Source of the DNA: Bacteroidota bacterium
GTDB taxonomy: Bacteria; Bacteroidota; Bacteroidia; NS11-12g; UBA955
Direction of reading: 5' to 3'
Assembly (NCBI GenBank): GCA_024103355.1
Contig: JAGFIU010000051.1
Span: forward strand, 19,548 to 83,547
Length of the DNA stretch: 64,000 nucleotides
The notes under the pieces are model-generated. The model ran no database searches and was not told the DNA's origin. It saw only the letters and a list, made by a program, of their open reading frames with translations. This document shows positions 1 through 27,212 of this stretch, piece by piece. A program made the position numbers and the translations under genes. Within the stretch, counting starts at the first letter, position 1. Every line of letters begins with the position of its first letter.

Positions 1-1
1 C

Positions 2-187: not shown

Positions 188-197
188 GAGAAGAGAT

Positions 198-2288
198 ATG
201 GGAAAAACAATAAGAAAATCAACAATGGAAGCCCTTGGACTGGGAACGGTGTCAGCGATATTTAACAATGGAAAACTGCCGGTTTCTTTAGAAGAAATGG
301 TGGACAAGGTTTTTGGAGATAAGAATAACCGTGGCGCAATGGTCATTTCCGGAGCAGGTGGAATAGTAGGGGCAGGAAAGGTTATGCAGTTTGCATCACG
401 TTTGATGGATTATAACGTACCCATTATTGCCTTGGATTTGCCGGGCGCACCCGATGGGATTGCAAAACAATACAAAGGCTTGCAGGCTTCTTTTGGTGCT
501 GATGGCGCCAACAACATTATGAAGAACATCATCAAGCTGAATTATGATGGTCAAACCTTGCCTCAATCTTTGAAACAATACAATCCTAAATTCTTATTGG
601 AAGCCATTCCTGAAAGATTAGAATTGAAAAAAGCCCATTATGCTTTGTTCAAAAAAGAATATCCTGAGATTCATATTTGGTCAGTTACTTCAGGTTTCCC
701 TTCCAAAGAATTGGGCGTAGGAATTGCTCACCCGGCATTTCCACACGAAATCAATAAAGTTTTTGAAATAGTGGAGGACAGTACTTCAGCGCAAACACAT
801 CTGCTTTGGGCAATGGGGCTGATTCCAATGCAGGTAAGCGATGATTGGTCTTTTGTGCTGGATGTTTTCTTTTGCGGATTGTTACAGGCAAGCATTCAGT
901 TTTGCAACAGAACCAACACTCCTTATTGGAAAGCGGATAAATATATTCGTCAAATTCTCGGACCCAATCCATTCAGAGCACATGATGTGATTGGAGCTAA
1001 GGGAGCTAACTTCCTTACTTGGTCTTGCCTATACCATTTAGGAAAAGAATATGGCGCTTTGTTTGAGCCTACCGGAGAATTAACCGAAAGAAAAGACAGC
1101 GGTCAAAACTGGTATCCGGCTAATCATTTCAGACCTCTGGTAAATTGGCAATTGGATGAAGAAGAGTCTGAAGAATTAAAATCCATCGTGTATGGTGCTT
1201 TAATTCAAATGACCACCATCATGTTGCATGAAAAACGTACTGATTTGAGTACCATGACTGCAATTGGCGAGTTGTGTGCACAGTTTACAAATGGTATCCC
1301 TGCATTTATTCGTAAAATAGGAAGTCAACAGGCTTTGGAATACGTAAATAAATATCATCAACTTGTACCCAAAGCGGCACAGACAACATGGTATCCCGAA
1401 ACGCTGCAAAATCTCAACACTCCCGAATGGCAACAGCTCTATGTGAATGCAGAGCATGACGGCACACACGGGTTTATTACGATCAGCCGTGAGAGCTATA
1501 ATTATGATGTAAACGAAGAACTTAACCGTGCTATTGACTGGCTGCACAGCGAAGGAATCAAGAAAGTGGTATTGACTTCCGATTTTCATTTTTCTACGCA
1601 AATGGTAGGTGCGGATACTACTGAATTTTTTGTGGCTGTCAATGACAGTCATATTGGAGAGAAAATTTCTTCCGATTGGTCAAAAACAGCACGTAGGTTT
1701 TACCATGAGTTTGAAACTTCAATCGGGTTTGTCAACGGTAAAAGATGTATGGGCGGAATGTTGGAGTTGATGATGCATTGCCAATACCTTATAGCACCCG
1801 ATTATGTCAAATTTGCCATGCCGGAAGTAACACTGCCCGTAATTCCCGGAATGGAAGGCTGTCATTGGGTGTTGCGCAAAACAAATACAGACAATCATTC
1901 TAAAATGCTCGAAATGCTTTTGCATGGTCAACAAATCAATGCCCGGCAAGCACTCGGTTTCCTTGTGGATTCTTCCGGCACTATGAATGATTGCCTTGCC
2001 ATGACAAAAAACATTCTTGAAAATGGAGATACGGCTCTGCCCAAAAGAAAAATTATAGAAAATGCGATACCTCATATTGCATCTGAGATTGAGAAAATCA
2101 AATGGTCAGAAAATCCGCAAATCCTTTCAGCACAAAAAGAAATTGCCGGGTGCGTGATTGCTTCTTGTTCTGCAACTGCTGATGAGGCATTACAAATTCA
2201 AGCAAAGGTTTCTGCGCAGTTTATGTCGGGACAGCTATTTCGCAAAGGAAAGATTGGAATTGAATACGATAAATTTTCAAAAAACTAA
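198..2288 (+). CDS. Bifunctional 3-hydroxyacyl-CoA dehydrogenase (N-terminal NAD-binding domain) / enoyl-CoA hydratase (C-terminal crotonase fold), with the domains in reversed order relative to FadB/FadJ
   Basis: N-terminus has VISGAGGIVGAGKVMQFAS, which matches the GxGxxG Rossmann motif of the HAD family. The C-terminal ~250 aa (…GFITISRESYNYDVNEELNRAIDWLHSEGIKKVVLTSDFHFSTQMVGADTTEFF…) is a crotonase-type fold. 696 aa. Confidence 0.65.
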   Translation: MGKTIRKSTMEALGLGTVSAIFNNGKLPVSLEEMVDKVFGDKNNRGAMVISGAGGIVGAGKVMQFASRLMDYNVPIIALDLPGAPDGIAKQYKGLQASFGADGANNIMKNIIKLNYDGQTLPQSLKQYNPKFLLEAIPERLELKKAHYALFKKEYPEIHIWSVTSGFPSKELGVGIAHPAFPHEINKVFEIVEDSTSAQTHLLWAMGLIPMQVSDDWSFVLDVFFCGLLQASIQFCNRTNTPYWKADKYIRQILGPNPFRAHDVIGAKGANFLTWSCLYHLGKEYGALFEPTGELTERKDSGQNWYPANHFRPLVNWQLDEEESEELKSIVYGALIQMTTIMLHEKRTDLSTMTAIGELCAQFTNGIPAFIRKIGSQQALEYVNKYHQLVPKAAQTTWYPETLQNLNTPEWQQLYVNAEHDGTHGFITISRESYNYDVNEELNRAIDWLHSEGIKKVVLTSDFHFSTQMVGADTTEFFVAVNDSHIGEKISSDWSKTARRFYHEFETSIGFVNGKRCMGGMLELMMHCQYLIAPDYVKFAMPEVTLPVIPGMEGCHWVLRKTNTDNHSKMLEMLLHGQQINARQALGFLVDSSGTMNDCLAMTKNILENGDTALPKRKIIENAIPHIASEIEKIKWSENPQILSAQKEIAGCVIASCSATADEALQIQAKVSAQFMSGQLFRKGKIGIEYDKFSKN

Positions 2289-2291
2289 AGA

Positions 2292-3353
2292 ATGACAGAA
2301 AAGATAAAACAATGGCAAATGACAGAACTGAAAGCCGATTTCAAATTGGCAGTTTCTGATATGCCGCAGGTGAAAGAAGATGAAGCATTGGTAAAAGTTG
2401 CCGGATGCGGAGTTTGCCATACAGATTTGAGTTTTTGGCATGATGGCGTAAGAACAAAAAAGGAATTGCCTTTAACGCTTGGTCATGAAATCAGCGGAAC
2501 GGTTATAGAAGGACCTTCGCATCTCAAAGGGAAAAATGTCATTATTCCGGCTGTATTACCCTGTGGCGATTGCGAATTATGCAACAAAGGCAGAAGTAAT
2601 ATGTGCCAGAATCAATTGATGCCCGGAAATGATTTCCATGGAGGTTTTGCTTCTCATGTTGTTGTTCCGTACAAGTATTTGTGTCCTGTTCCGGATGCGG
2701 TTTTGCAAAAATATCAATTAGAAGAATTAGCAGTGATAGCAGATGCTATTTCAACCCCATACCAGGTTTTGAAAAAATCAGAATTGGAGAAAGGTGATTT
2801 GGCTATTTGCATTGGTGTTGGAGGTGTTGGAGTATATGGTGCATTGATTGCCAAAATTATGGGAGCCAAAGTTTTGGCAATAGATATCAATGATGAAAAA
2901 TTAGAACAAGCCAAAAAGAATGGTGTACATGCAACACTCAATTCAAAAGGTTTGGATAGCAAAGAAATTAAAGCCAAAGTAAAAGAAATAGCCAAAGAGT
3001 TGGGCGCACCCAAATACGGTTGGAAAATCTTCGAGTTTTCAGGTACTACAGCCGGTCAGGATTTAGCGTTTAACCTGCTCACTTTTACTTCAAACTTGAG
3101 TATTGTAGGGTTTACCATGAACAAACTGGAAGTAAGATTGAGCAACCTTATGGCTTTTGATGCCAAGCTCATTGGTACATGGGGATGCAAACCTGAGCTG
3201 TATTCAGAAGTAGTTGATTTGATTGCCTCCGGCAAATTGGATATCAAAGACTTTGTTCAAACTTTCCCGATGAGCCGTATCAATGAAGTTTTCCAAAACA
3301 CTTTAGCTCACAAATACACCAAACGTTCCGTATTAGTACCTGATTTTAATTAA
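2292..3353 (+). CDS. Zn-dependent alcohol dehydrogenase (MDR superfamily). Candidate 6-hydroxycyclohex-1-ene-1-carbonyl-CoA dehydrogenase (Had)-like
   Basis: GroES-like N-terminal domain with GCGVCHTDL and a structural-Zn Cys cluster (CGDCELCNKGRSNMC). Rossmann motif GVGGVGVYG. 353 aa. Starts 4 bp after the upstream stop. Confidence 0.8.
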   Translation: MTEKIKQWQMTELKADFKLAVSDMPQVKEDEALVKVAGCGVCHTDLSFWHDGVRTKKELPLTLGHEISGTVIEGPSHLKGKNVIIPAVLPCGDCELCNKGRSNMCQNQLMPGNDFHGGFASHVVVPYKYLCPVPDAVLQKYQLEELAVIADAISTPYQVLKKSELEKGDLAICIGVGGVGVYGALIAKIMGAKVLAIDINDEKLEQAKKNGVHATLNSKGLDSKEIKAKVKEIAKELGAPKYGWKIFEFSGTTAGQDLAFNLLTFTSNLSIVGFTMNKLEVRLSNLMAFDAKLIGTWGCKPELYSEVVDLIASGKLDIKDFVQTFPMSRINEVFQNTLAHKYTKRSVLVPDFN

Positions 3354-3357
3354 ACAA

Positions 3358-4473
3358 ATGAAAATAGAAATGGAAGCATTAAAAAATCACAATATCGTAG
3401 AAGACTACAACTACACTGACATTCTTTATGAAAAACGTCCTTGTTTAAACACTGACGGAACTCCTGTTGACGGCTTGTACAACGCATGGATTATCATTAA
3501 CAATCCCAAACAGTACAACTCTTACACTACCAAAGCTGTAAAGGAAATTATCCTTGCATTTGGTGAAGCTTCCAATGACAGAAGTGTTGTTGCAGTAGTA
3601 TTTACAGGTGTGGAAGACAAGGCTTTTTGTACCGGAGGAAACACCAAAGAATATGCAGAATATTATTCCGGCAACCCGCAGGAATACTCTCAATATATGC
3701 GCTTGTTCAACGATATGGTTTCTGCCATTATGAAATGTGAAAAGCCGGTTATTTCCCGTGTAAACGGAATGAGAATAGGGGGAGGACAAGAAATAGGAAT
3801 GGCTTGTGATTTCACGGTAGCAAGTGATTTAGCTCGTTTTGGGCAAGCAGGACCTAAGCATGGAAGTGCTGCTATTGGTGGCGCAACAGACTTCCTGCAT
3901 TTGTATGTGGGAGTAGAAAGAGCCATGTATTCACTTTCGTTGTGCGAGCCGTGGTCTGCACATCAGGCTTTGCATTATGGCATGATTACCGACATTGCTC
4001 CTGCATTGAAAGTGGATGGGAAATTTATTGCCAATCCTTTGGTCAATATTGAAAAATATGCTGATGAATATGGCAGGGTAATTTTTGGCGCTATGAAAAC
4101 AGGAGAAGAATTAGCAAAAGGAAAAGAGTTGATGACAAAAGGAGAAGTTGATTTGTCAAAGTTGGATGAATTGGTCAACAAGCTCATTGCAAAATTGCTG
4201 CACACCTTTCCGAATTGCCTGCACAAAACACTTTCTGAAGTGCGCAAGAAAAAATTAGAGCATTGGGATAAGAACAAAGAAAGCAGCCGTGAATGGTTGG
4301 CGTTAAATATGATGTCCGAAGCAAAAGCTGGATTCAGGGCTTTCAATTACGGTCCCAAAAATGACAGGGAAGTGGACTTTATCAAACTCCGTCAGTTGTT
4401 GGCACAAGGACACGAATGGAATGAAGACTTGCATCGTGCTATTTCTCCTCAGTTTAAAACCGAAAACGTATAA
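3358..4473 (+). CDS. Crotonase-superfamily protein with a long C-terminal extension (371 aa). Candidate ring-opening beta-oxoacyl-CoA hydrolase (Oah/BamA/BadI-like)
   Basis: Crotonase core (VVAVVFTGVEDKAFCTGGNTKEY…ISRVNGMRIGGGQEIGMACDF) followed by a ~100 aa C-terminal extension. This size matches ring-hydrolysing members rather than the ~260 aa hydratases. Confidence 0.7.
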   Translation: MKIEMEALKNHNIVEDYNYTDILYEKRPCLNTDGTPVDGLYNAWIIINNPKQYNSYTTKAVKEIILAFGEASNDRSVVAVVFTGVEDKAFCTGGNTKEYAEYYSGNPQEYSQYMRLFNDMVSAIMKCEKPVISRVNGMRIGGGQEIGMACDFTVASDLARFGQAGPKHGSAAIGGATDFLHLYVGVERAMYSLSLCEPWSAHQALHYGMITDIAPALKVDGKFIANPLVNIEKYADEYGRVIFGAMKTGEELAKGKELMTKGEVDLSKLDELVNKLIAKLLHTFPNCLHKTLSEVRKKKLEHWDKNKESSREWLALNMMSEAKAGFRAFNYGPKNDREVDFIKLRQLLAQGHEWNEDLHRAISPQFKTENV

Positions 4474-4475
4474 AA

Positions 4476-5248
4476 TGGAAAAGATTAAACTTACATATTC
4501 TCACAATCATTCTGTTGCCAATATCCTCTTGAATGATGGCAAAGGCAATGTGCTGGATAATATAATGATGTTGGAATTGTTGGATTGTTTCAAAGAATTT
4601 GCAGAAAATAAGCACCTCAAACTAATTACATTTCAAGGTGAAGGAAAGCATTTTTCTTTTGGGGCAAGCGTAGAAGAACATACACAGGAATTTGCCGAAA
4701 TGATGCTCAAAACTTTTCACCGACTATTTATGGTGTTGAAGGATATGGCAATTCCTACAATGGCAAAAATTTCGGGTCAATGTTTGGGAGGCGGAATGGA
4801 GTTAGCAATCTTATGTAATTTCTTGTTTGCAGATAAAACAGCAAAACTCGGTCAACCCGAAATTGTATTGGGAGTGTTTCCGCCACCGGCTTCCATTATT
4901 CTCCCGGAAAAAATAGGGCTTTCCCGTGCAGAAGAGTTGTTGTTGAGCGGTAGGAGTATTGATGCAGAGGAAGCATTGAGAATTGGATTGGTGCACAAGG
5001 TATTTGAAGATAAAGAAGCATTGAACCTGGGTACAGAAGAATGGATTGAAAAAAATATTATTCCTAAAAGCGCATCCTCACTTCGATTTGGTGTGAGAGC
5101 AGCCAGGGCAAAATTCAACCATGTGTTGAGTAATTTTTTACCACAACTTGAACAAATGTATCTAAGCCAGTTGATGAATACCAAAGATGCAAATGAAGGT
5201 ATTACTTCATTTTTGGAAAAACGTCAGCCGGCATGGGTAAACGAATAA
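4476..5248 (+). CDS. Enoyl-CoA hydratase/isomerase family protein (257 aa). Candidate dienoyl-CoA hydratase (Dch)-like
   Basis: Crotonase motifs (KLITFQGEGKHFSFGASVEEH…KISGQCLGGGMELAILCNFLFAD). I prefer the ATG at 4476, 3 bp after the upstream stop, over the ORF-track start at 4361, which would overlap the preceding gene by 113 bp. Confidence 0.75.
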
Positions 5249-5261
5249 AGATGAAAAGAAA

Positions 5262-7088
5262 ATGATAGTAGAAAGTGCAGTCATAAAATTTGCAGGAGAT
5301 TCCGGAGACGGGATACAGTTAGCAGGCACCTTGTTTACTGAAAACGTAGCATTGATGGGCAATGCTATCGCTACATTTCCTGATTTTCCTTCTGAAATCA
5401 GAGCACCACAAGGAACTGTTGCCGGTGTTTCCGGTTTTCAGATTCATTTTGGTACCTCGGGGGTACATAGTCCCGGAGATGCACCGGATGTGTTGGTAGC
5501 AATGAACCCGGCTGCTCTCAAAGCCAATATCCACGCTCTCAAGGCCAATTGTTTGATTATTGTGGATGCTGATTCTTTTGGAAAAAGAGATATTGAAAAA
5601 GCAGGGTTTGACAGTAATCCGTTGGAGGATGGAACATTAGAGGGATATCAGGTGATTGCCGCTCCTATTACTTCCTTAACAAAAGCTTCGGTTGCAGAAT
5701 TGGGATTGGACAATAAATCTGCTGACCGTTGTAAAAATATGTTCACGCTTGGGTTGGTGTTATGGTTATTTAATGAATCCTTGGATAGCACACTTCGATA
5801 TTTTGAACAAAAATTTAAAAAGAATCCCGTCATTGAAGCTGCCAATAAAAAGGCGTTGAATGCAGGATTTAACTATGGGTTAAATACAGAAGCGATTAAA
5901 ACTTCATTTACCGTATTACCCGCACCGAAGGCATCCGGAACTTATCGTAACATGACAGGAAACCAGGCAACCGCATGGGGATTTATGGCAGCTGCAGAAA
6001 AGGCCGGAAGACCCTTGTTTTTAGGCTCTTATCCCATTACTCCGGCAACCGATATTATGCAAGAGCTTACCAAGCACAAATGGTCAGGAGCAAGGGTTTT
6101 TCAGGCGGAGGATGAAATAGCCGGAATCTGTTCTGCCATTGGAGCTGCTTTTGCCGGAAATATTGCTGTTACTACTACATCAGGCCCCGGAATGGCTCTT
6201 AAAACAGAAGCCATCGGTTTGGCTGTGATGACAGAATTGCCGATTGTGATTGTGGATGTACAAAGAGGAGGCCCCAGTACAGGATTGCCTACCAAAACTG
6301 AACAAAGTGATTTGATGCAAGCGATCTGGGGAAGAAATGGAGAAAGTCCCGTGGTTGTGCTTTCTGCCGGAACTCCTTCTGACTGTTTTGATTGGGCTTA
6401 TGAAGCAGTGCGCATTGCCGTTGAACACATGACTCCGGTTTTTTTATTGACTGAAAGTTATCTTGGCAACGGAGCAGAACCTTGGAAAATTAAGAAATTG
6501 GCGGATATGCCTGCAATTACTCCCAGAACCTTAGCAAATCCGGATCCTGCATGGAAACCTTATAGCCGTGATGAAGAAAAATTAGCGCGTTATTGGGTAA
6601 TACCAGGCACTGCCGCTATGCAACACCGTATTGGAGGTTTAGAAAAAGATGAATGTACAGGATGCGTGTCCACCAATCCGCAAAACCATGAGAAAATGGT
6701 AAAAATTCGCAAGGAGAAAATTAAAAAAATTGAAAACTACATACCGCTACAACGATACAAAGGCAAAGATGCCAAAAAGTTATTGGTAGTAGGCTGGGGA
6801 GGACAATTTGGTATATTGATGGGAGCCGTAAAAGAATTGCAGGAAGAAGGGAAAGACTTAGCCTATGCCCATTTTAATTATATCAACCCCTTACCAAAAA
6901 ATACGGCAGAGGTGTTTTCTAAATTTGAAAAGATAATTGTTTGTGAATTGAACGATGGTCAATTAGCCAAATACTTGAGGGCGGTGATGCCTCAGTTTCA
7001 GTATGAGCAATACAACAAGATACAGGGACTTCCATTTACCGTAAAAGAACTAAAAGAAAAATTTACACAACTACTTTCTGAATTTTAA
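5262..7088 (+). CDS. korA: 2-oxoacid:ferredoxin oxidoreductase, alpha subunit (KorA-type)
   Basis: 608 aa. N-terminus GDSGDGIQLAG and the overall layout are typical of 2-oxoglutarate/2-oxoacid:ferredoxin oxidoreductase alpha subunits. The beta subunit follows 2 bp later. Confidence 0.85.
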   Translation: MIVESAVIKFAGDSGDGIQLAGTLFTENVALMGNAIATFPDFPSEIRAPQGTVAGVSGFQIHFGTSGVHSPGDAPDVLVAMNPAALKANIHALKANCLIIVDADSFGKRDIEKAGFDSNPLEDGTLEGYQVIAAPITSLTKASVAELGLDNKSADRCKNMFTLGLVLWLFNESLDSTLRYFEQKFKKNPVIEAANKKALNAGFNYGLNTEAIKTSFTVLPAPKASGTYRNMTGNQATAWGFMAAAEKAGRPLFLGSYPITPATDIMQELTKHKWSGARVFQAEDEIAGICSAIGAAFAGNIAVTTTSGPGMALKTEAIGLAVMTELPIVIVDVQRGGPSTGLPTKTEQSDLMQAIWGRNGESPVVVLSAGTPSDCFDWAYEAVRIAVEHMTPVFLLTESYLGNGAEPWKIKKLADMPAITPRTLANPDPAWKPYSRDEEKLARYWVIPGTAAMQHRIGGLEKDECTGCVSTNPQNHEKMVKIRKEKIKKIENYIPLQRYKGKDAKKLLVVGWGGQFGILMGAVKELQEEGKDLAYAHFNYINPLPKNTAEVFSKFEKIIVCELNDGQLAKYLRAVMPQFQYEQYNKIQGLPFTVKELKEKFTQLLSEF

Positions 7089-7089
7089 T

Positions 7090-8109
7090 ATGGATACATT
7101 ACAATGCTTATATAAACCGAAAGAATACGCAAGCGACCAAGAAGTAAAATGGTGTCCCGGTTGTGGTGATTATGCCATTATCAATGCTGTGCAGAAAGCC
7201 TTTTCAGAACTGAATCTGAAGAAAGAAGAAGTTGCTATTATTTCCGGTATTGGTTGTTCATCAAGATTCCCCTATTATATGGATACTTATGGTTTCCATA
7301 CTATACACGGAAGGCCTGCTGCCATTGCAACGGGTGTCAAACTTGCCAACCCTGATTTGAGTGTTTGGGTAGTAAGTGGCGATGGTGATTCGCTGGCAAT
7401 TGGAGGTAATCATTTTATCCATTTGATAAGAAGAAATATTAACCTGAATCTTTTGCTCTTTAACAATGAAATCTATGGTTTGACCAAAGGACAACATTCT
7501 CCGACAACAAAGAAAGGATTGCATACCAAATCAGCTCCTTATGGCACAATTGAAAATCCGTTCAATGTGGGAGAATTGGTATTGGGAGCACAAGGACAGT
7601 TTTTTGCAAGAGTCCCTGATACGGATGTAAAGTTGATGACAAGTGTTTTCATAGAAGCCGAAAAACATCAGGGAACTTCCATTGTTGAAGTTCTTCAAAA
7701 CTGTGTCATTTTTAATGATGAGACCCATGCTTCTGTTACATCTAAAGAAAATAAAATAAAGAACCAATTGATTTTGGAACATGGAAAGCCTATGCTGTTT
7801 GGAGAAAATAATAGTAAAGGCTTGCGTTTAAACGGTTTGGAATTAGAGGTAGTTACCATTGGCGAGAATGGAATCACCGAAAGTGACATTTTGGTGCACG
7901 ATGCTCATTGTAAATCGCCTGTTTTACATCAGATGCTAATTCAGATGAAACTTCCTGACTATCCGGTAGCAATGGGGTTAATAAGGGATGTGGAATCATC
8001 TGTTTATGATAAGGAATTTCATGGTCAGATAAAGGCGGGGAAGGCAGAAGGAAAGATAAAATCAGTTGACGAATTATTTTTTAGTGGAAATACTTTTCAA
8101 GTAAATTAA
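7090..8109 (+). CDS. korB: 2-oxoacid:ferredoxin oxidoreductase, beta subunit (TPP-binding)
   Basis: WCPGCGDYAI…GIGCSSRF…GDGD TPP-binding motifs. 339 aa. Confidence 0.85.
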   Translation: MDTLQCLYKPKEYASDQEVKWCPGCGDYAIINAVQKAFSELNLKKEEVAIISGIGCSSRFPYYMDTYGFHTIHGRPAAIATGVKLANPDLSVWVVSGDGDSLAIGGNHFIHLIRRNINLNLLLFNNEIYGLTKGQHSPTTKKGLHTKSAPYGTIENPFNVGELVLGAQGQFFARVPDTDVKLMTSVFIEAEKHQGTSIVEVLQNCVIFNDETHASVTSKENKIKNQLILEHGKPMLFGENNSKGLRLNGLELEVVTIGENGITESDILVHDAHCKSPVLHQMLIQMKLPDYPVAMGLIRDVESSVYDKEFHGQIKAGKAEGKIKSVDELFFSGNTFQVN

Positions 8110-8122
8110 TAAACAATATACT

Positions 8123-8470
8123 ATGGCTATCAAAATCACTGAAGACTGTATCAATTGCGGAGCCTGTGAGCCCGAATGTCCAAACAAAGCAATTTTTGCC
8201 AATGGAGAACCCTGGACTATGGCAGACGGTACAAACATTACCTCAGACTACACTTTAATGAACGGGAATACCATTGACCCTTTTGCTGAGCAAGAACCGG
8301 TTTCAACTGAATATTACTACATTGTTACCGATAAATGCACAGAATGTGTTGGTTTTCATGATGAACCTCAATGCGCCTCTGTGTGTCCTGTAGATTGCTG
8401 TTTGCCTGATGAAAATCACAGAGAGTCTAGAGAAGAGTTGGAAGCAAAACAAAAGAGATTACATGAATAA
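8123..8470 (+). CDS. fdx: 2x[4Fe-4S] ferredoxin, Allochromatium (Alvin)-type motif with a long inter-cluster insertion
   Basis: Cluster I is CINCGACEPECP (Cx2Cx2Cx3CP). Cluster II is CTECVGFHDEPQCASVCP (Cx2Cx8Cx3CP). About 50 aa separate the two motifs. 115 aa. Confidence 0.85.
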   Translation: MAIKITEDCINCGACEPECPNKAIFANGEPWTMADGTNITSDYTLMNGNTIDPFAEQEPVSTEYYYIVTDKCTECVGFHDEPQCASVCPVDCCLPDENHRESREELEAKQKRLHE

Positions 8471-9094
8471 ATGAGAAGTTTTCTGCAATATATGAATGAA
8501 GCAGCAGCCATTATTTTGGCCGGTGGGGAGTCCAAAAGAATGGGGTTTCCTAAACTCCTATTGCCCTTTGATAGTGGCAAAACCTTTATTGAGCAGATTG
8601 CAGATACTTATGCTAAGGTTATTCAAGGCGAGGTTATTTTGGTTATTAATGCAGAGGTATTGAAAGCTCACAGTACGTTCTTTTCTCAGTTTAAGGATTT
8701 GATAATAGTCCCAAATCATAATCCTGACCTTGGCAGAACATACTCTATCCAGCTTGGATTGGCGAAGACACAGAAAAGAAAAATTTTTATTCAAAATACT
8801 GATAATCCTTTTGTGAGTGAGAAATCGCTTTTGTCAATGCTTGAATTGGCTTCTAAAGATGCTTATGTTTCTCCGAGAAGTAACGGTAAAGGAGGACATC
8901 CGATTTTAATATGCGGAAATGTAATTGATAAGATTGTCAAGGCAGATTATGATAAAAGTTTAAAGAGCATTCTTGCTGACTCTATGCGTATAGATTGGAT
9001 AACAGATGATGCCTCTATGCTTGTGAATATTGATACTCGCGATGTTTATAAACAGTATTTTCCTAATCTAAATACGGAATTTAACAATGCATAA
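8471..9094 (+). CDS. mocA: Molybdenum cofactor cytidylyltransferase / MobA-like NTP-transferase (MocA-type)
   Basis: N-terminal AIILAGGESKRMGFPKLLLPF nucleotidyltransferase motif. Its start codon overlaps the ferredoxin stop. It sits beside xdhC and an XDH-family enzyme. Confidence 0.7.
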   Translation: MRSFLQYMNEAAAIILAGGESKRMGFPKLLLPFDSGKTFIEQIADTYAKVIQGEVILVINAEVLKAHSTFFSQFKDLIIVPNHNPDLGRTYSIQLGLAKTQKRKIFIQNTDNPFVSEKSLLSMLELASKDAYVSPRSNGKGGHPILICGNVIDKIVKADYDKSLKSILADSMRIDWITDDASMLVNIDTRDVYKQYFPNLNTEFNNA

Positions 9095-9898
9095 ATGACA
9101 AGCCCTAAATTACCATATCATCCCAACAAACTCAAATCTGCACTCTGCATTATTGTGGATACCAGAGGCTCTACACCGCGTAAAGCCGGTACTAAAATGC
9201 ATGTATTTGAAAACGGGAAAATTGAGGGAACTATTGGTGGAGGTGCTTTAGAAAAAAAAGTAATTGAAGATGCTCTTGCACAAATAAAAGTGGGCAACCC
9301 CAGATTGTTTGAACACCAGCTTCTCCAACAACATAATATGTGCTGTGGCGGTATGGTAAAGGTATATATAGAACCGGAAGCACAGAAAAATCATTTGATA
9401 ATTTTTGGTGCAGGGCATGTTGGGCAGGAATTAGCAAACCAGGCGGTGAAAGCGGAGTTTGATGTAACTGTGTTTGATGACAGACCCGAATATATACAGC
9501 AAATCACCAACGAAACTATCGAGGCTCAATGCCTTGATTTTTCAGATGCATTAAAGCAAATCTCTTTTGGTGAAAATACTTATATCGCTATTCTTACTTA
9601 CCGGCACGATATTGACCGGGCTTTGCTTCGGTATTGTTTGAGAAAAGAAAGAGCCTATCTCGGTTTTATTGGTAGTCAACGAAAAATATTGGTTACACGA
9701 AAAATGATGTTACAGGAAGGAATAGCAACAGAAGAAGAATTGAACAAAGTAGATATGCCTATTGGTTTGAACATTGGTGCTGAATCACCTTTTGAAATAG
9801 CGGTTAGCATTATGGCAAAACTGATAGAAGTGAAAAACCAAGAGCAGGTTAATACAATTCAACAAATAAAAGACATAGAACAATGCATAAAAGAATAG
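9095..9898 (+). CDS. xdhC: XdhC/CoxI-family MoCo insertion/maturation accessory protein
   Basis: 267 aa with a Rossmann-like C-terminal half (LIIFGAGHVGQELA). Starts directly after the mocA stop. Typical neighbour of XDH-family structural genes. Confidence 0.7.
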   Translation: MTSPKLPYHPNKLKSALCIIVDTRGSTPRKAGTKMHVFENGKIEGTIGGGALEKKVIEDALAQIKVGNPRLFEHQLLQQHNMCCGGMVKVYIEPEAQKNHLIIFGAGHVGQELANQAVKAEFDVTVFDDRPEYIQQITNETIEAQCLDFSDALKQISFGENTYIAILTYRHDIDRALLRYCLRKERAYLGFIGSQRKILVTRKMMLQEGIATEEELNKVDMPIGLNIGAESPFEIAVSIMAKLIEVKNQEQVNTIQQIKDIEQCIKE

Positions 9899-10605
9899 CC
9901 GTCATAACAGGAGCTGCCAAGGGTATTGGAAAATCTATTGCGCAAAGGTTCGCACGTGATGGCTATCAATGTGTATTGGTGGATGTGGATGAAGTACAAG
10001 GGCAGCAATTGGCAAAGGAATTGGGTAAGGATGCGATTTTCCGTTCATGTGATATCAGTGATGAGTCAGATGTTAAAAAGTTGTTTGAAAGCCTTGAGAG
10101 AATAGATGTTTTGATAAACAATGCCGGGATAATTCGTGATAATATGATTTGGAAAATGCCGGTGGAAGATTTTGATAGGGTTGCAAATATCAACCTGAAA
10201 GGAACATGGATGATGTGTCGCGAAGCGGCTTTGAGGATGAAGGAACAAAGAAGCGGAAGAATAGTAAACATTGCTTCTAGAGCGTGGTTAGGAAATCCTG
10301 GACAGTCTAACTATGCTGCTTCAAAAGCGGGTGTGGTAAGCCTGACAAGGGTTCTGGCTTTGGAATTGGGGCGATACGGCATATTGGTTAATGCCATTGC
10401 TCCCGGTTTGATTGATACCCCTTTGGCACAAGGGTTAACGGATGAAGTTAGAGAAAAGCTCATTCAGGCACAACCGACTAAAAGCATGGGAAAACCGGAG
10501 GATGTGGCACATGCAGCCGCTTTTCTGTGTGATGAAAATACCTTGTTTATTACCGGTCAAACCTTGTATGTAGATGGCGGAAAAAGTATTGGAGCAGGAC
10601 TGTGA
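9883..10605 (+). CDS. Short-chain dehydrogenase/reductase (FabG-like 3-oxoacyl reductase family)
   Basis: TGAAKGIGKSIA Rossmann motif, NNAG, and the YxxxK catalytic dyad (YAASKAG). 240 aa. Overlaps xdhC by 16 bp. Confidence 0.85.
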   Translation: MHKRIAVITGAAKGIGKSIAQRFARDGYQCVLVDVDEVQGQQLAKELGKDAIFRSCDISDESDVKKLFESLERIDVLINNAGIIRDNMIWKMPVEDFDRVANINLKGTWMMCREAALRMKEQRSGRIVNIASRAWLGNPGQSNYAASKAGVVSLTRVLALELGRYGILVNAIAPGLIDTPLAQGLTDEVREKLIQAQPTKSMGKPEDVAHAAAFLCDENTLFITGQTLYVDGGKSIGAGL

Positions 10606-10633
10606 AAGTATTGAAAGATGAAAAATAAATGCA

Positions 10634-13426
10634 ATGAGAAAGATAAGTTTAAAAATCAACAACAAGCCTTATACCTTTCTGGCAAACGATTCAGAGACTT
10701 TGTCTCATGTAATTCGTGAAAGGGCAGGGCTTACGGGAACAAAGGTCGGGTGCAGCCAGGGCAGTTGCGGAGCTTGTACAGTCATTGCAGACGGAGAACC
10801 GGTATTGAGTTGCATTACTCCTGCATTTCGATTTGACAATGCTGAAATTCAAACAATAGAAGGGTTATCCAATCAGGGTACTCCGGAACTTTTACAGGAA
10901 TTGTTTGTGCGCAAAGGAGCTATCCAATGTGGTTTTTGCACACCCGGAATGGTATTGACCGCTAAGGATTTTGTAAACAAAAATCCCAATGCAACCAAAC
11001 AGGATATCAAAGAAGCACTATCCGGGAATTTATGCCGCTGTACCGGTTATAAAAAGATTATTGAAGCTGTTACCGAATATACCGAACTCCACAAACAAGG
11101 TGTTGAGCACTTGCCGCCTGTTGAAGAAAGCAGCAAAATCATTGGTGTCAGCCGACCTTATATCGAAGCAGAAAAAAAGGTTTTAGGCAAAGCCCTTTAT
11201 GCCGATGATTTACAATTCAGAAATTTGTTATACTGCAAGTTTCTGCGAAGCACTCATGCTCATGCATTGATTGAAGATATTGATATTTCAGAAGCGCAAA
11301 AAATGGAAGGAGTGGCTTATGTAGCTGTAGGAAAAGAGTTGCCTGAAAAATTCGGAGTCTTGCCTGTTTCGCATGATGAAACGGCTATGGCTATCGAAAA
11401 GACACGCTATTTTGGAGAAATAGTTGCAGCCGTAGCGGCTGAGAGTTTTGAAATTGCTGAAGCTGCATGTAAAAAAATCAAAGTTAAATACAAACCGCTC
11501 AAAACTTATTTTAGCATTGAAGAATCCATTCATGACGTAGGCGACAATGCCAAGATTCACGAACACTGCAAGTTCAACAATAATATTCACAAAAAAGCAG
11601 AATTGCGTTTTGGAAACCAGGAAGAAGGATTTAATAATTCTGATATCATTTCTGAAATGGAATTTGATGTGGAAGGAGTTTCTCATGCTTTTACTGAGCC
11701 TCATTCGGCAACAGCTTATTGGGATGAAAACGGATTGACCATTCACACGGCTACACAAGTTCCTCATTATCTTCACAGAGCTTTAGCCAAAGTAATGCAA
11801 GTTCCATTGAGCAGGGTGCGTGTTATCAAACCTTATGTAGGCGGTGGTTTTGGAGGAAAGAGTGATCCCTTTCCACATGAGATGATTATCTCTCACATTG
11901 CCCGAAAGACAGGCAGGCCTGTGCGCTCCACTTTTACAAGAGAAGAAGTTTTTCTTAGCAATCACGGCAGGCATCCATCCAAATTCAAAATGAAAATGGG
12001 AGCCGACAGCAATGGAATGTTGAAAGTATTGGATGCTGATGTGGCAATAGATGGCGGTGCTTACGGCAGCTTTGGCGTGGTTACTTCATACTATAACGGG
12101 GTGCTATTACAGGCACCTTATGAAATTAAAGACTTTGGATTTAGAACGTATCGTGTTTATACCAACAAGCCTCAATGTGGTGCTATGCGTGGGCACGGAG
12201 CTGTTAATACCCGTTTTGCTGCTGAAACGCTCATAGATGATATTGCCCATAGGTTGAACATCGATCCGTGTGAAATGAGGTTGAAGAATTTTTATAAAGA
12301 AAATGTAATTACTATCGGGCAGTTCAGAATTACATCCAATGGCAGTAGAATGGCTTTGCAGCAAGTAATGGAACGCTCCGGTTGGAAAGACAAGCGTGCG
12401 AACTTGCCGGCAGGACGAGGAATTGGGGTGGGATGTGGTTTCTTCATCAGCGGAAGCGCCTTGCCGATTATCTGGAATGAATATCCTCAAACAGTGGTAC
12501 ATCTGAAATTGGATTTTGACGGAAGAATTTTGATTTCTTCCGGTGCCAGTGATATAGGCCAAGGAAGCGATACCATGCTGGCAATGGTGGTAGCAGAAAC
12601 GATGGGTGTTGATATGCAAAAAGTTTTTGTACTTGCTGCCGATACTTTGCTAACTCCGGTGGATTTAGGAAGTTATTCCAGCCGGGTTACATTCATGTGT
12701 GGAAATGCTGCCAAACAAGCGGCTGAAAAACTTAAATCTGAAATATTAGAAGCGGTTGCCAAAAGAAAAGCAATAGCAATAGAAGAATTGTATATTGAAA
12801 ACAGTCGGGTACGCTCCAATGATAAACAAGTGGATTTAGAATGGTTGGAAGCGGTGGATATGGCTACAGCTCATCGCGGAGCTTTGACGGTTAGCGGTAA
12901 TTATATTTCACCAAAATTAGGAGGCGATTTTAAAGGAGCAGGTGCAGGGTTAAGCCCTTCATACAGTTTTGGAGCGTGTATAGCAGAAGTAAATGTAGAT
13001 AAACAAACGGGGCAGGTAGAATTACTCCATGTCTGGGGTGCACACGACTGCGGAAAAGCACTGAATCCATTAGCAGTTGAGGGACAGTTGGAAGGTTCTT
13101 GGCACATGGGAATAGGACAGGCAGTCAGTGAAGAGATGAAATACTTTAACGGGTTGCTCTTAAATAACAATTTCTGTGATTACAAAATCCCTACCACCTT
13201 AGACACTCCCGAAATAGATACTAATATCATAGAATCCGGAGATCCGGAAGGACCCTTTGGGGCTAAAGAATGTGGCGAGGGAGCTTTACATCCTGTTATT
13301 CCGGCTATAGCCAATGCCATTTTTAATGCCTGTGGAGTGCGCATTACCAAACTGCCCATCAAAGCAGACGAAGTACTGTCACAAATAAAAGCAAATATGC
13401 AAGTGAAGGCGGAAGCAATAAACTAA
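10634..13426 (+). CDS. Xanthine-dehydrogenase-family molybdenum enzyme with the [2Fe-2S] small subunit fused N-terminal to the MoCo-binding large subunit (HcrC+HcrA / CoxS+CoxL-like, 930 aa)
   Basis: N-terminal ~160 aa carries GCSQGSCGACTV, CGFCTPG and CRCTGY, the two [2Fe-2S] motifs. The downstream region has the a/b-hammerhead and MoCo-binding domains, including GGGFGGK. The C-terminal part has GAKECGEGA in place of the usual GxGE catalytic-Glu loop. Confidence 0.85.
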   Translation: MRKISLKINNKPYTFLANDSETLSHVIRERAGLTGTKVGCSQGSCGACTVIADGEPVLSCITPAFRFDNAEIQTIEGLSNQGTPELLQELFVRKGAIQCGFCTPGMVLTAKDFVNKNPNATKQDIKEALSGNLCRCTGYKKIIEAVTEYTELHKQGVEHLPPVEESSKIIGVSRPYIEAEKKVLGKALYADDLQFRNLLYCKFLRSTHAHALIEDIDISEAQKMEGVAYVAVGKELPEKFGVLPVSHDETAMAIEKTRYFGEIVAAVAAESFEIAEAACKKIKVKYKPLKTYFSIEESIHDVGDNAKIHEHCKFNNNIHKKAELRFGNQEEGFNNSDIISEMEFDVEGVSHAFTEPHSATAYWDENGLTIHTATQVPHYLHRALAKVMQVPLSRVRVIKPYVGGGFGGKSDPFPHEMIISHIARKTGRPVRSTFTREEVFLSNHGRHPSKFKMKMGADSNGMLKVLDADVAIDGGAYGSFGVVTSYYNGVLLQAPYEIKDFGFRTYRVYTNKPQCGAMRGHGAVNTRFAAETLIDDIAHRLNIDPCEMRLKNFYKENVITIGQFRITSNGSRMALQQVMERSGWKDKRANLPAGRGIGVGCGFFISGSALPIIWNEYPQTVVHLKLDFDGRILISSGASDIGQGSDTMLAMVVAETMGVDMQKVFVLAADTLLTPVDLGSYSSRVTFMCGNAAKQAAEKLKSEILEAVAKRKAIAIEELYIENSRVRSNDKQVDLEWLEAVDMATAHRGALTVSGNYISPKLGGDFKGAGAGLSPSYSFGACIAEVNVDKQTGQVELLHVWGAHDCGKALNPLAVEGQLEGSWHMGIGQAVSEEMKYFNGLLLNNNFCDYKIPTTLDTPEIDTNIIESGDPEGPFGAKECGEGALHPVIPAIANAIFNACGVRITKLPIKADEVLSQIKANMQVKAEAIN

Positions 13427-13437
13427 TCAATGAAACT

Positions 13438-14376
13438 ATGGAAGCAACACAATCTTACATCAAAGTAAAAACCACGAACGAGGCAATGCAGCAAATCAAC
13501 AGCCTGCAAAATGCTATTTTCGTTGCCGGAGGTACCGATGTCTTTGTAAACAAACAACAAGGAAATATTGAAGCCGGATACTTAATAGATGTTTCGGGAA
13601 TTGAGGATTTAATGACTTGCCGTTTATATGATGACCGGATAGAAATCGGTGCCATGTTTACCCTTGAAAAAATTATCCAATCGGAAACGATTAACACTCA
13701 TTTTCCAACATTGGTTCAAGCAGCATTGGCGGTAGCAACTCCTGTAATTCGCAAAACGGCAACCATTGGAGGCAATGTGTTATGCGAAAATCGTTGTTTC
13801 TATTACAACCAAAGCGAATGGTGGCGAGAAGCCGTAGGGCATTGTCTCAAATGCAACGGGGATATTTGTTTGGCAACAGGGGGTAGAAAAAATTGTTTTT
13901 CAAAATTTGTAAGTGATACCGCACCGGTTTTGATTGCTTATGGTGCCACCGCCATTCTGATAGATGCCGATGGAGAGCGCTGTGTGCCTTTGGAGAGTAT
14001 CTATACTGGTGATGGAATTGTTTCTGTTACCTTAAACAAAAAGACTTTGCTCAAATCCATTGAAATTCCTTTAAGCACAAAAAAGGTAATTTTCAAAAAA
14101 CTCAGACCCAGAAAAACACTTGATTTTACCTCGCTTACTACTGCGGTCTCCCTTGATAATAAAATGAATTTGCGCATGGTCATCGGTGGTGTTGACCCTA
14201 AGCCGATAGTGGTGGAAGGAAATCTGAAAAAAGAAGATTTATTACAATTGGTTACCACAGCCATCAAAAAACCGAGAGTAGTGGAAAATGACTTTTACTC
14301 ACGTACATACCGGAAAGACATGATAAAAGTCTTTATAGAAAACAGTCTTAACGAATTAGGAATCCAAATTAATTAA
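13438..14376 (+). CDS. FAD-binding medium subunit of the molybdenum enzyme (CoxM/HcrB-like), with a cysteine-rich insertion loop that probably binds a [4Fe-4S] cluster
   Basis: FAD-binding fold (IFVAGGTDV). Insertion GGNVLCENRCFYYNQSEWWREAVGHCLKCNGDICLATGGRKNCF has Cys at positions 116, 120, 136, 139, 144 and 153 of the protein. Four of these have 16/8/9 spacing. Confidence 0.8.
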   Translation: MEATQSYIKVKTTNEAMQQINSLQNAIFVAGGTDVFVNKQQGNIEAGYLIDVSGIEDLMTCRLYDDRIEIGAMFTLEKIIQSETINTHFPTLVQAALAVATPVIRKTATIGGNVLCENRCFYYNQSEWWREAVGHCLKCNGDICLATGGRKNCFSKFVSDTAPVLIAYGATAILIDADGERCVPLESIYTGDGIVSVTLNKKTLLKSIEIPLSTKKVIFKKLRPRKTLDFTSLTTAVSLDNKMNLRMVIGGVDPKPIVVEGNLKKEDLLQLVTTAIKKPRVVENDFYSRTYRKDMIKVFIENSLNELGIQIN

Positions 14377-14398: not shown

Positions 14399-14908
14399 AT
14401 GAATGAAGTAGTCAAAGTTTTAACCGGAGAGCACGAAAATATTAAACGTGCCATTGAACATACACATCGCTTGTTTGCAGATATTTTATCCGGCAATGCA
14501 GAACTCAATATGATGTTAGAACGTATTGATTTTTTTAGAAATTATGCAGACGGATATCATCATCATAAAGAAGAAGAAGTCTTGTTTCCTGAAATGATTA
14601 AACGCAATGAAATGCTGGAATACGGTGTTATTCATGAGATGTTGCAAAATCATGAAGACTTCAGAGAAATGCTTTCCGAATTGGAAGATGCTGTAAACGA
14701 TGGAGATGCAGAAGGAGCAAAGAAAAAATTTGAAGTTTATGCAGAAGCTTTGTTAGAACATATTGCTGTAGAAGATGAAGAAGTATTTCAGATTGCCGAG
14801 ACCATTATGAGCGAAGATGAACTACTGACCGTACTCTACCGTTTTGAGGATTGTGACAGAGAGTTGGGAGTGGATGAAAAAAAAGAGTGGGAGAAAAAAA
14901 TAGGGTAG
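14399..14908 (+). CDS. Hemerythrin-like (HHE cation-binding domain) protein
   Basis: 169 aa with H…HHxxEE…H…E pattern (YHHHKEEEVLFPEM, HEMLQNHEDF, LEHIAVEDEE) typical of bacterial hemerythrin-like di-iron domains. Confidence 0.65.
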   Translation: MNEVVKVLTGEHENIKRAIEHTHRLFADILSGNAELNMMLERIDFFRNYADGYHHHKEEEVLFPEMIKRNEMLEYGVIHEMLQNHEDFREMLSELEDAVNDGDAEGAKKKFEVYAEALLEHIAVEDEEVFQIAETIMSEDELLTVLYRFEDCDRELGVDEKKEWEKKIG

Positions 14909-15008: not shown

Positions 15009-15917
15009 ATGATAAACATCACCTGTAAAAGTAGTACACTGCGAATCGCGATAGCGCAAGCAATCGTTAAAGTGAGCACAGAAGAAACAATCAATGCCAT
15101 GAAGGAAAATCGTGTACCCAAAGGGGATGTTTTTGAAATGTCCAAGACTGCGGGTTTGTTTGCTGTTAAACGAACCAGTGATATGATTCCCGATTGCCAT
15201 CCTTTGCCCGTAGAATATACCAATGTAAGATTTGAAATGAAAGGGTTGGAGGTTCATATTGAAATGGAAGTTCATACAATCTACAAAACAGGTGTGGAAG
15301 TTGAAGCTATGCACGGAGTTTCAGTTGTTGCATTGACTATGTATGACATGCTCAAGCCGATTGATAAGCATATTGAAATTTGTTCTATTAAACTGAAGGA
15401 AAAGAAAGGGGGTAAATCTGATTTTAAAGATAATTTCAGAAAAGACTTAAAAGCGGCTGTGATTGTTTGTTCTGACAGCATTTCCGGGGGACAAAAGGAG
15501 GATAAGGCCGGTAAGTCAATAATAGAAAAACTTGAAAACTGTGAGGTTTCCATTTCCTCATATTTGATTATTCCTGATGAAATAGAAGAAATCAGAAAGA
15601 AAGTACAATCATTGGTTGCTTCAAACAATCTGATAATTTTGACAGGTGGAACAGGTTTGTCACCGAGAGATGTAACCCCGGAAGCATTAAAAGGAATGTT
15701 TGACAGAGAAATCCCCGGAATTATGGAAGCGGCCAGAAATTATGGACAAGAAAGAACTCCGTTTTCTATGCTTTCCCGTGGGGTAGCAGGTTTGATCGGC
15801 AATACACTTGTGCTTGCATTGCCCGGCTCTACTAAGGGAGCAAAGGAATCAATGGATGCCCTATTCCCGTATGTTTTACATATTTTTAAAATAATTGGCG
15901 GTGATAGACACGATTAA
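15009..15917 (+). CDS. moaC: Molybdenum cofactor biosynthesis fusion protein: MoaC (cyclic pyranopterin monophosphate synthase) N-terminal plus MogA/MoaB (molybdopterin adenylyltransferase) C-terminal
   Basis: N-terminal half has MoaC-like sequence (…[31 protein letters not shown]…). C-terminal half has a MogA/MoaB-like GGTG motif ([17 protein letters not shown]). 302 aa. Confidence 0.8.
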
Positions 15918-26084: not shown

Positions 26085-27212
26085 TTACAAATTACCTCTT
26101 CTTTCTTGTTCTTTTTCTAATGAAACAAAGAGTGCTTTGAAATTGCCTTTACCAAAGGATTTAGCACCTTTTCTTTGAATTATTTCATAGAATAGTGTAG
26201 GTCTGTCTTGTACCGGCTTTGTAAAGATTTGAAGCAAGTAGCCTTCATCGTCTTTATCAACGAGAATCCCGAGTTTTTTGAGTGGTTCTATATCTTCATC
26301 GATTTTACCGACCCTGTCAAGCAAGTCAACATAATAAGAATCAGGGATGGAAAGAAACTCAACCCCTCTGTTTCTGAGGTCTGAAACGGTTTTTACAATA
26401 TCGTGAGTAGCAAGAGCAACGTGTTGAACCCCTTCACCATGATAGAAGTCAAGATATTCTTCAACTTGTGATTTCTTTTTGCCCTCTGCCGGTTCGTTGA
26501 TAGGAAATTTTACGTATCCGTTTCCATTGCTCATCACTTTACTCATCAAGGCTGAATATTCGGTTGAAATGTCTTTATCATCAAAAGAAAGAATGTTTTT
26601 AAAACCCATCACGGTTTCATAAAATTCAACCCATTTATTCATCTGATTCCATCCGACATTTCCTACACAATGGTCAACATACAATAATCCTGTGGGCTGT
26701 GGGTGGTATTCGCTTTCCCATTTTTCATAACCCGGCATAAAAGGCCCGTTGTAATTTTTTCTTTCAACAAAAATGTGAACAGTTTCTCCGTACGTATGAA
26801 TACCTGAGCGAACTACTTCACCATTGGCATCCTTTTCTACTTTAGGTTCCATAAAAGATTTTCCGCCTCGTTTGGTAGTTTCTTCCCAAGCTTTTCGCGC
26901 ATCATCAACCCAAAGAGCCAAAACTTTAACACCATCTCCGTGCTGTTTTATATGTTCGGCAATAGGGGAGTCCGGGTGCAATGGTGAGGTTAATACAAAA
27001 CGAATTTTGTCTTGTTTGATAACATAACTAACCTTGTCTCTAACACCGGTTTCCGGACCTGCATACGCAACTTCTTGAAAACCAAAAGCAGTTTTATAGT
27101 AATGAGCGGCTTGTTTGGCATTGCCTACATAAAATTCTACATAGTCTGTTCCATTGATTGGGAGAAAATCCGGTTCTTTTGCTCCCTGAGCGTTTAGTGG
27201 ATTTGATATCAT
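26085..27212 (-). CDS. hppD: 4-hydroxyphenylpyruvate dioxygenase
   Basis: 375 aa. Two VOC/glyoxalase-fold halves. HPPD-like motifs (DHCVGNVGW…, EFYHGEGVQHVALAT). Confidence 0.8.
   Translation of the reverse strand: MISNPLNAQGAKEPDFLPINGTDYVEFYVGNAKQAAHYYKTAFGFQEVAYAGPETGVRDKVSYVIKQDKIRFVLTSPLHPDSPIAEHIKQHGDGVKVLALWVDDARKAWEETTKRGGKSFMEPKVEKDANGEVVRSGIHTYGETVHIFVERKNYNGPFMPGYEKWESEYHPQPTGLLYVDHCVGNVGWNQMNKWVEFYETVMGFKNILSFDDKDISTEYSALMSKVMSNGNGYVKFPINEPAEGKKKSQVEEYLDFYHGEGVQHVALATHDIVKTVSDLRNRGVEFLSIPDSYYVDLLDRVGKIDEDIEPLKKLGILVDKDDEGYLLQIFTKPVQDRPTLFYEIIQRKGAKSFGKGNFKALFVSLEKEQERRGNL

Follow-up and report, generated by a model that had tools for sequence, protein, structure and literature searches.

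A Bacteroidota relative of 4-hydroxybenzoyl-CoA reductase and the cysteine-bearing loop of its FAD subunit

Does the cysteine-bearing insertion in the flavin adenine dinucleotide (FAD) subunit of a molybdenum (Mo) enzyme from an uncultured Bacteroidota bacterium hold an iron-sulfur cluster, and does such a loop tell in which direction the enzyme works? Both questions were raised by a 312-aa protein encoded in a 64,000-nucleotide stretch of contig JAGFIU010000051.1 (hereafter the window, i.e., the whole stretch of DNA that was analysed). A preliminary description of this stretch had proposed that the protein carries a four-Cys insertion equivalent to the [4Fe-4S] loop of HcrB, the FAD (beta) subunit of the 4-hydroxybenzoyl-CoA reductase (abbreviated 4-HBCR) of T. 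aromatica, and had read this loop as the mark of a reductase-type Mo hydroxylase. Comparison with known proteins supported the insertion as a homolog of the HcrB loop, and residues 116-158 most probably bind one low-potential [4Fe-4S] cluster via Cys120/136/144/153. For the enzyme itself, a reductase of the 4-HBCR type that depends on ferredoxin is the most probable identity.

Cysteine register and conservation of the loop

A phmmer search of the FAD subunit against all Protein Data Bank (PDB) chains returned T. aromatica HcrB (1rm6_B) as the top match (E 3.1e-42). In the pairwise alignment, which was ungapped across the loop, query C120, C136, C144 and C153 stood opposite HcrB C122, C138, C146 and C155. 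The preliminary description had given the query cysteines spacings of 16, 8 and 9 residues and had ascribed the same spacing, offset by 2, to HcrB. The former was confirmed in the 312-aa translation, and the latter in the deposited chain, which has Cys at exactly these positions (offset +2). We take these four HcrB residues to be the [4Fe-4S] ligands, as reportedly given by Unciuleac et al. 2004; a full-text search for literature naming Cys122/138/146/155 as such gave only unrelated papers. Identity with HcrB was 38% overall and 18/43 (42%) inside the loop, where both proteins displayed the core RC-x-(F/Y)YNQSEWWR-x5-CLK-x-x-GD-x-C-x8-C. The subunit matched the Pfam family FAD_binding_5 (PF00941, E 1.5e-36), and TIGR03195 was its best NCBIfam family, ahead by about 90 bits.

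Eight cysteines were found in the protein (positions 61, 116, 120, 136, 139, 144, 153 and 182), of which six were packed into 38 residues (13783-13899, translated as CENRCFYYNQSEWWREAVGHCLKCNGDICLATGGRKNCF). The four cysteines previously described were thus all present, but the count was incomplete, as the same stretch also holds C116 and C139.

The four ligand-equivalent cysteines were invariant in 120 of the 120 best homologs of the FAD subunit (49-83% identity). They were also kept in 79 of 80 genome loci, taken from GTDB species representatives and comprising 35 loci of a Bacteroidota/Ignavibacteria clade and 45 others, and in every loop-covering sequence among 150 more distant representatives (the best of 272 clusters at 50% identity and E <= 1e-30, from 1.84 billion representatives; a few partial entries were uninformative). 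The fifth loop Cys of HcrB, C117, varied across the family (C/L/M/A/S); the invariance of the four others while this one varies gives indirect support to their role as ligands. The match between the query and HcrB loops is not a chance one, because six of the eight cysteines fall within 38 residues and because the four ligand-equivalent ones are conserved in homologs, loci and representatives. The sole locus of the 80 with a replaced ligand Cys (L082, from a Rhodospirillaceae metagenome-assembled genome, MAG) had Gly in place of the third one (GDIGHV), which may reflect a sequencing error, or a degenerate or three-Cys-ligand variant.

The subunit belongs to a populated and partly annotated family. 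In total, 1704 relatives were obtained at E <= 1e-10, many of them already named '4-hydroxybenzoyl-CoA reductase subunit beta' by pipelines of the Joint Genome Institute (JGI), and the protein itself has a public entry from a Bacteroidetes MAG, under the name 'FAD binding domain-containing protein'.

Several FAD subunits of the same fold lacked the insertion. CoxM/CutM, NdhM and XdhB-type subunits have the FAD_binding_5 fold in common with the query (query-normalised Foldseek template modelling scores, TM, of 0.62-0.72), but only the query displayed an insertion, starting after the GGN motif. The alignment of the query with the CoxM, CutM and XdhB models ended at about residue 114, and nicotinate dehydrogenase 3hrd_C aligned to query residues 18-115 and 159-230, with five residues facing query 116-158. 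The FAD_binding_5 match was also long, with 207 protein residues over 166 profile positions. These alignment breaks (about 115 to about 159) and the excess over the Pfam profile agree with the earlier statement that CoxM, XdhB and NdhM have no such insertion. An ordinary xanthine dehydrogenase (XDH), carbon monoxide dehydrogenase or nicotinate dehydrogenase FAD subunit was ruled out, as those proteins do not carry it.

The next-best PDB matches aligning through the insertion were 5y6q_B, from a Methylobacillus aldehyde oxidase (E 7e-16), and E. coli PaoB (5g5g_B, E 4e-12), in which a four-Cys [4Fe-4S] motif occupies the same site of the FAD subunit (PMC13404670). Three of their four cysteines aligned with query C120, C136 and C153, whereas their second Cys stood opposite query W129 and none stood opposite C144. 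Their pattern was therefore C-x9-C-x8-C-x18-C, while PDB alignments gave the query the HcrB-type pattern C-x15-C-x7-C-x8-C. Set within GGN...RC.YNQSEWWR...CLK, the latter pattern provides a signature that marks HcrB-type FAD subunits and separates them from those of the PaoB type.

The AlphaFold2 (AF2) model of the subunit, built with a 120-sequence alignment, had a predicted local distance difference test (pLDDT) score of 82.6 and a predicted TM score (pTM) of 0.84. Its top Foldseek match was 1rm6_B (E 4e-27, TM 0.78).

Fused partner subunit and gene cluster

The partner of the FAD subunit was a fused gamma-alpha protein (Table 1). Its residues 1-150 were HcrC-like, with [2Fe-2S] motifs at C40/45/48/60 and C99/102/134/136, and its residues 169-919 corresponded to an HcrA-like molybdopterin module. 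The alpha module matched 1rm6_A at E 2e-178 (599 bits), the next PDB match reaching 323 bits and PaoC 204 bits, and the gamma module matched 1rm6_C at E 3.7e-39. All three modules of the enzyme were nearest to HcrA/B/C, both among solved structures and in NCBIfam. An N-terminal extension or twin-arginine translocation (Tat) signal was not seen in the fused subunit: its 2Fe-2S domain begins at about residue 3, whereas PaoA has about 60 extra residues, forming an N-terminal export extension, and residues 63-222 of PaoA align to query 4-148. A PaoABC-like aldehyde oxidoreductase was ruled out by the Cys topology, by the scores (310 bits against the PaoC model NF041671, cutoff 1180) and by the missing export signal. 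The holoenzyme is rather likely to be a cytoplasmic aryl-CoA reductive dehydroxylase of the 4-HBCR type, made of the fused subunit bearing two [2Fe-2S] clusters and Mo and of the FAD/[4Fe-4S] subunit.

The closest known system, T. aromatica HcrCAB (1RM6/1SB3; TIGR03193, TIGR03194, TIGR03195), contains the three cofactor modules found here, gave the top match in sequence and fold for each query module, and has the gene order gamma-alpha-beta in common with the query. The beta insertion, the identical register and spacing of its four cysteines and the YNQSEWWR core are common to both beta subunits. Both systems are also tied to class I benzoyl-CoA reductase, Dch, Had, Oah, an Alvin-type ferredoxin and a two-subunit 2-oxoacid:ferredoxin oxidoreductase. 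The query differs in several respects: its beta subunit is only about 38% identical, three equivalog cutoffs are missed, and gamma and alpha form one 930-aa polypeptide. Its loop has C116 and C139 in addition but is without a Cys where HcrB has C117, its module includes genes for a short-chain dehydrogenase/reductase (SDR) and a hemerythrin-like protein, and its host is an uncultured Bacteroidota rather than a proteobacterium. All 32 informative loci of the Bacteroidota/Ignavibacteria clade had the gamma-alpha fusion, which was absent from the 39 proteobacterial or clostridial loci compared.

All genes between 198 and 15917 were encoded on the same strand, with intergenic gaps of 0-30 nt except for about 100 nt before moaC/moaB. 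They include Had, Oah and Dch genes, a 2-oxoacid:ferredoxin oxidoreductase followed by a ferredoxin, and genes for Mo cofactor maturation on both sides of the enzyme (Table 1).

Two further contigs lengthened the gene cluster upstream of the window start: L001, which was 99.97% identical to window positions 1-11519, and the related L002, which carries an identical Had protein. The upstream genes of L002 encoded a BcrA-like protein, BcrD (330 bits, cutoff 313), an acyl-CoA ligase, an HGD-D-type subunit, an ApbA-activase fusion and a thiolase. Within L002, the region between the bcrA/D-like genes and the thiolase (1887-6684) comprised genes for a 582-aa AMP-ligase of the FadD-like kind, a 405-aa HGD-D/HadB-like subunit and, as an unusual fusion, a 614-aa protein that joins a ketopantoate-reductase-like (ApbA) domain with an acyl-CoA dehydratase activase domain. 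These genes could represent a second ATP-dependent dehydratase- or reductase-like system.

A link to benzoyl-CoA reduction was also seen in two loci of related MAGs, L012 (labelled Ignavibacteriae) and L020 (Flavobacteriales), where a divergent bcrCBAD abuts mocA-xdhC-SDR-hcrCA-hcrB. Their Bcr proteins scored 633-660 bits for BcrB (cutoff 487), 437 for BcrC (421) and 317 for BcrD (313). Benzoyl-CoA pathway genes were found within 10 kb in 22 of the 35 clade loci, the remainder being mostly short contigs.

This gene content suggests a route for electrons and carbon. The 2-oxoacid:ferredoxin oxidoreductase would reduce the Alvin-type ferredoxin, which as the probable donor would pass electrons to a surface [4Fe-4S] cluster held by C120/136/144/153. 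From this cluster, electrons would move to FAD, to the fused subunit's pair of [2Fe-2S] clusters and then to a Mo-pyranopterin (cytosine dinucleotide) site, where the para-hydroxyl of 4-hydroxybenzoyl-CoA (or of a close analog) would be removed. The benzoyl-CoA so formed would be taken up by a class I benzoyl-CoA reductase and then by Dch, Had and Oah from the same gene cluster.

Table 1. Features of the window around the FAD subunit and elsewhere in the text, with their positions and family matches
Feature	Position	Strand	Matches and remarks
696-aa protein with C-terminal enoyl-CoA hydratase domain	198-2288	+	
Had	2292-3353	+	TIGR03201, 455.9 bits, cutoff 338.65 (above)
Oah	3358-4473	+	TIGR03200, 598.8 bits, cutoff 464.45 (above)
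Dch	4475-5248	+	TIGR03189 best match, 230.7 bits, below cutoff 292.5
Two-subunit 2-oxoacid:ferredoxin oxidoreductase	alpha 5262-7088, beta 7090-8109	+	Pfam domains POR, POR_N, TPP_enzyme_C; TIGR03710, 646.6, cutoff 482.75 (above); beta TIGR02177, 252 bits, just under cutoff 261.9
Alvin/YfhL-type 2[4Fe-4S] ferredoxin	8123-8470	+	NF033683, 94.6, cutoff 86 (above); PDB matches 2fgo, 1blu, 1rgv (E 1e-18 to 4e-16)
MocA-like cytidylyltransferase	8471-9094	+	TIGR03310, E 3.7e-31, below cutoff
XdhC chaperone	9095-9898	+	NF045664, E 8.5e-61, and TIGR02964, E 6.9e-42, both below cutoff
SDR-family oxidoreductase	9883-10605	+	FabG-like NCBIfam matches; directly upstream of hcrCA
Fused gamma-alpha subunit (hcrCA)	10634-13426	+	930 aa; 1rm6_A, 1rm6_C
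HcrB-like FAD subunit of 4-HBCR-type Mo enzyme	13438-14376	+	312 aa; 1rm6_B, PF00941, TIGR03195, Foldseek
Cys-bearing insertion of FAD subunit	13783-13911	+	~43 residues, aa 116-158
Ligand-equivalent codons	C120 13795-13797, C136 13843-13845, C144 13867-13869, C153 13894-13896	+	
Extra clade-specific Cys codons	C116 13783-13785, C139 13852-13854	+	
Hemerythrin (HHE) domain protein	14399-14908	+	PF01814, E 4.7e-17; directly downstream of hcrB
MoaC/MoaB bifunctional Mo cofactor biosynthesis protein	15009-15917	+	NF002947, 404.6, cutoff 285 (above)
4-Hydroxyphenylpyruvate dioxygenase (4-HPPD)	26085-27212	-	TIGR01263, 457 bits, above cutoff
Cytochrome c gene, then gene weakly similar to heme-copper oxidase subunit I	36991-38683	+	

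Catalytic direction and rival explanations

The loop was first presented as the feature that makes a 'reverse' enzyme, a claim that comparison with characterised relatives did not sustain. The PaoABC and 5Y6Q enzymes are oxidative, with PaoB and 5y6q_B carrying a cluster at the same site. Ucdh (UcdCFO) of Enterocloster, an enzyme in the xanthine-oxidase family whose closest characterised relative is 4-HBCR, removes a phenolic hydroxyl para to a carbonyl and uses NADH, not ferredoxin (PMC12771579). Its FAD subunit is without the [4Fe-4S] loop (PMC11760930), and its substrate is not a CoA thioester, whereas the presumed substrate of the query is one. Since PaoB and 5y6q_B are oxidative and Ucdh is reductive without the loop, the [4Fe-4S] cluster is neither sufficient nor necessary for reductive chemistry, and the presence of a cluster should not be read as proof of catalytic direction. 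Nor was the loop the strongest single piece of evidence in the window, as had been proposed: the HcrA match and the operon context carry no less information. A reductase of the 4-HBCR type is still the most probable identity, and this part of the preliminary description stands, but the better evidence for it is the combination of modules nearest to HcrA/B/C, operon content and upstream bcr genes.

Several observations weigh against this assignment. Each Hcr equivalog model was matched below its cutoff, with 206.3 bits for the FAD subunit against TIGR03195 (cutoff 404.55), 815 bits for the alpha module against TIGR03194 (cutoff 994.55, NCBIfam) and 156 bits for the gamma module against the corresponding NCBIfam model (cutoff 257.8); these low scores may stem from divergence at the phylum level or from an altered specificity. 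Neither a benzoate- nor a 4-hydroxybenzoate-CoA ligase could be recognised, the upstream AMP-ligase being FadD-like. Class I benzoyl-CoA reductase also requires a ferredoxin and an oxidoreductase, so the presence of both genes is not specific to the direction of the Mo enzyme. The AF2 loop, in an apo model, fell below a pLDDT of 50 over residues 118-148 (118-137, 139-143 and 145-148), as would be expected when a segment organised by a cofactor is modelled without that cofactor and without the partner subunit. With two extra conserved cysteines in the loop, the exact ligand set may differ from the four taken here. Finally, an oxygen-dependent 4-HPPD is encoded on the same contig, and 4-HBCR is oxygen-sensitive (PMC12771579). 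The occurrence of this dioxygenase beside an oxygen-sensitive pathway suggests a facultative lifestyle, and the organism is probably facultative; a cytochrome c gene was also found on the contig, and the gene after it weakly resembles heme-copper oxidase subunit I.

The most serious alternative, although an unlikely one, is an enzyme with an HcrB-like [4Fe-4S] loop that is not a 4-HBCR. It would act on another aryl- or heteroaryl-CoA or acid substrate, or it would run in the oxidative direction with the cluster passing electrons out to ferredoxin, a role put forward for aldehyde oxidoreductases of the PaoABC type. The below-cutoff scores of all Hcr equivalog models would fit such an enzyme, as would the wide spread of the HcrB-type loop over 272 clusters and the cluster found at the same site in oxidative PaoB and 5y6q_B (PMC13404670). 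The same applies to the lack of a recognisable canonical 4-hydroxybenzoate-CoA ligase and to the conserved SDR and hemerythrin genes of the module. In addition, bcr genes lay within 10 kb in only 13 of 45 proteobacterial loci, so that the family is probably functionally broader than 4-HBCR. However, the alpha module was far nearer to HcrA than to any oxidase, and the Cys topology was HcrB-type, not PaoB-type. Two further points that favor a 4-HBCR-type reductase over this alternative are the absence of a Tat signal and the close, conserved gene linkage to Dch, Had, Oah and bcrCBAD.

The two extra cysteines were a property of the clade. C116 and C139 were each conserved in 119 of 120 close homologs, and their T. 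aromatica HcrB counterparts were Q118 and Y141; proteobacterial-type sequences had neither, with a Cys instead one position earlier, at query L115. A distance of 3-4 residues separates each of them from one of the canonical ligands (C116-x3-C120 and C136-x2-C139), and they mostly co-occurred, only one of the pair being present in, e.g., L013, L064, P0133 and P0164. They may form a disulfide or redox pair, or one may be an alternative ligand. A reading in which the clade has remodelled its 4-HBCR through the subunit fusion, the six-Cys loop (with C116/C139 perhaps a redox pair) and a hemerythrin-like partner, which might fit an oxygen-sensitive, ferredoxin-driven aryl-CoA dehydroxylase and a class I benzoyl-CoA pathway to life in facultatively aerobic or microoxic hosts, is improbable on present evidence. 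Were it right, organisms commonly viewed as aerobes that degrade polymers would play a so far unnoticed part in the anoxic turnover of aromatic carbon.

Less probable again is an altered metal site, in which C116 or C139 replaces a canonical ligand, or both together make up a redox-active disulfide or a further small metal site beside the cluster, e.g., as an oxygen or redox switch; such a site would be compatible with a 4-HBCR-type reductase. The near-complete and usually joint conservation of both residues in the clade, their closeness to the canonical ligands and their absence from T. aromatica HcrB and the proteobacterial type would all agree with it, and the hemerythrin-like gene beside hcrB is unique to the same clade. 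Yet the four canonical cysteines are still invariant, so no ligand replacement is required, and a few sequences keep just one of the two extra Cys. The AF2 loop (pLDDT <50) is too unreliable to place them, and shared ancestry alone could explain their co-occurrence.

A loop without metal, i.e., a structural, disulfide-rich or vestigial insertion with electrons entering at FAD from NAD(P)H in the manner of XDH or Ucdh, is very improbable: the low modelling confidence and the reductive, NADH-driven and cluster-free Ucdh (PMC12771579) could be cited for it, but hundreds of divergent sequences keep the four cysteines without exception, in the register of a crystallographically defined cluster loop, structural disulfides are unlikely in a cytoplasmic protein, and a loop that its cofactor organises should have a low pLDDT when modelled in the apo form.

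Distribution of the clade and companion genes

All 35 Bacteroidota/Ignavibacteria loci came from MAGs, with no isolate among them, under labels that include Flavobacteriales, Chitinophaga, Ferruginibacter, Saprospirales and Ignavibacteria. The window itself was placed firmly in Bacteroidota because it encodes a type IX secretion system (T9SS) sorting-domain protein. Literature searches on this Hcr clade yielded only generic metagenome annotations and one Flavobacteriales MAG, which expressed anaerobic benzoyl-CoA degradation enzymes in a metatranscriptomic study (PMC8099898). Because this report and the JGI HcrB labels came earlier, the present enzyme should be only a modest surprise for specialists.

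Such a loop belongs to the textbook traits of a known family, of which the present protein is a divergent new member, and the new elements lie at the level of the clade. To judge from the sequences compared, these are the universal gamma-alpha fusion, the six-Cys loop and the hemerythrin-like companion, the latter encoded in 23 of the 35 clade loci and in none of the 45 others; the preliminary description had missed all three. A role of the hemerythrin-like protein in oxygen sensing or Fe-S protection is speculation, and no informative relative of it was found among solved structures. The fusion, the additional pair of cysteines and the hemerythrin-like partner provide handles for studying the working of such oxygen-sensitive enzymes in facultative organisms.

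A Bacteroidota MAG encodes a complete anaerobic benzoyl-CoA module, predicted to be driven by ferredoxin and including a probable 4-HBCR-type dehydroxylase with a predicted intact [4Fe-4S] entry site. The enzyme, so far a proteobacterial paradigm, is thereby extended to a large clade whose 35 recovered loci all came from MAGs.

Some genes of the cluster showed peculiarities of their own. The ferredoxin was 115 aa long, compared with about 80 aa usually, owing to an insertion of about 35 residues (aa ~27-62) between its matched halves. Only the C-terminal ~250 residues of the first protein of the cluster were recognised, its N-terminal ~400 residues being without a family match. The SDR gene overlapped the end of xdhC and was present at >=60% identity in 15 of 35 clade loci. 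One further locus (L028, PBQF01000042.1), labelled 'Parcubacteria group bacterium' and probably mis-binned, harbored a fused hcrCA-hcrB of the Bacteroidota type as well as Had, Oah and Dch.

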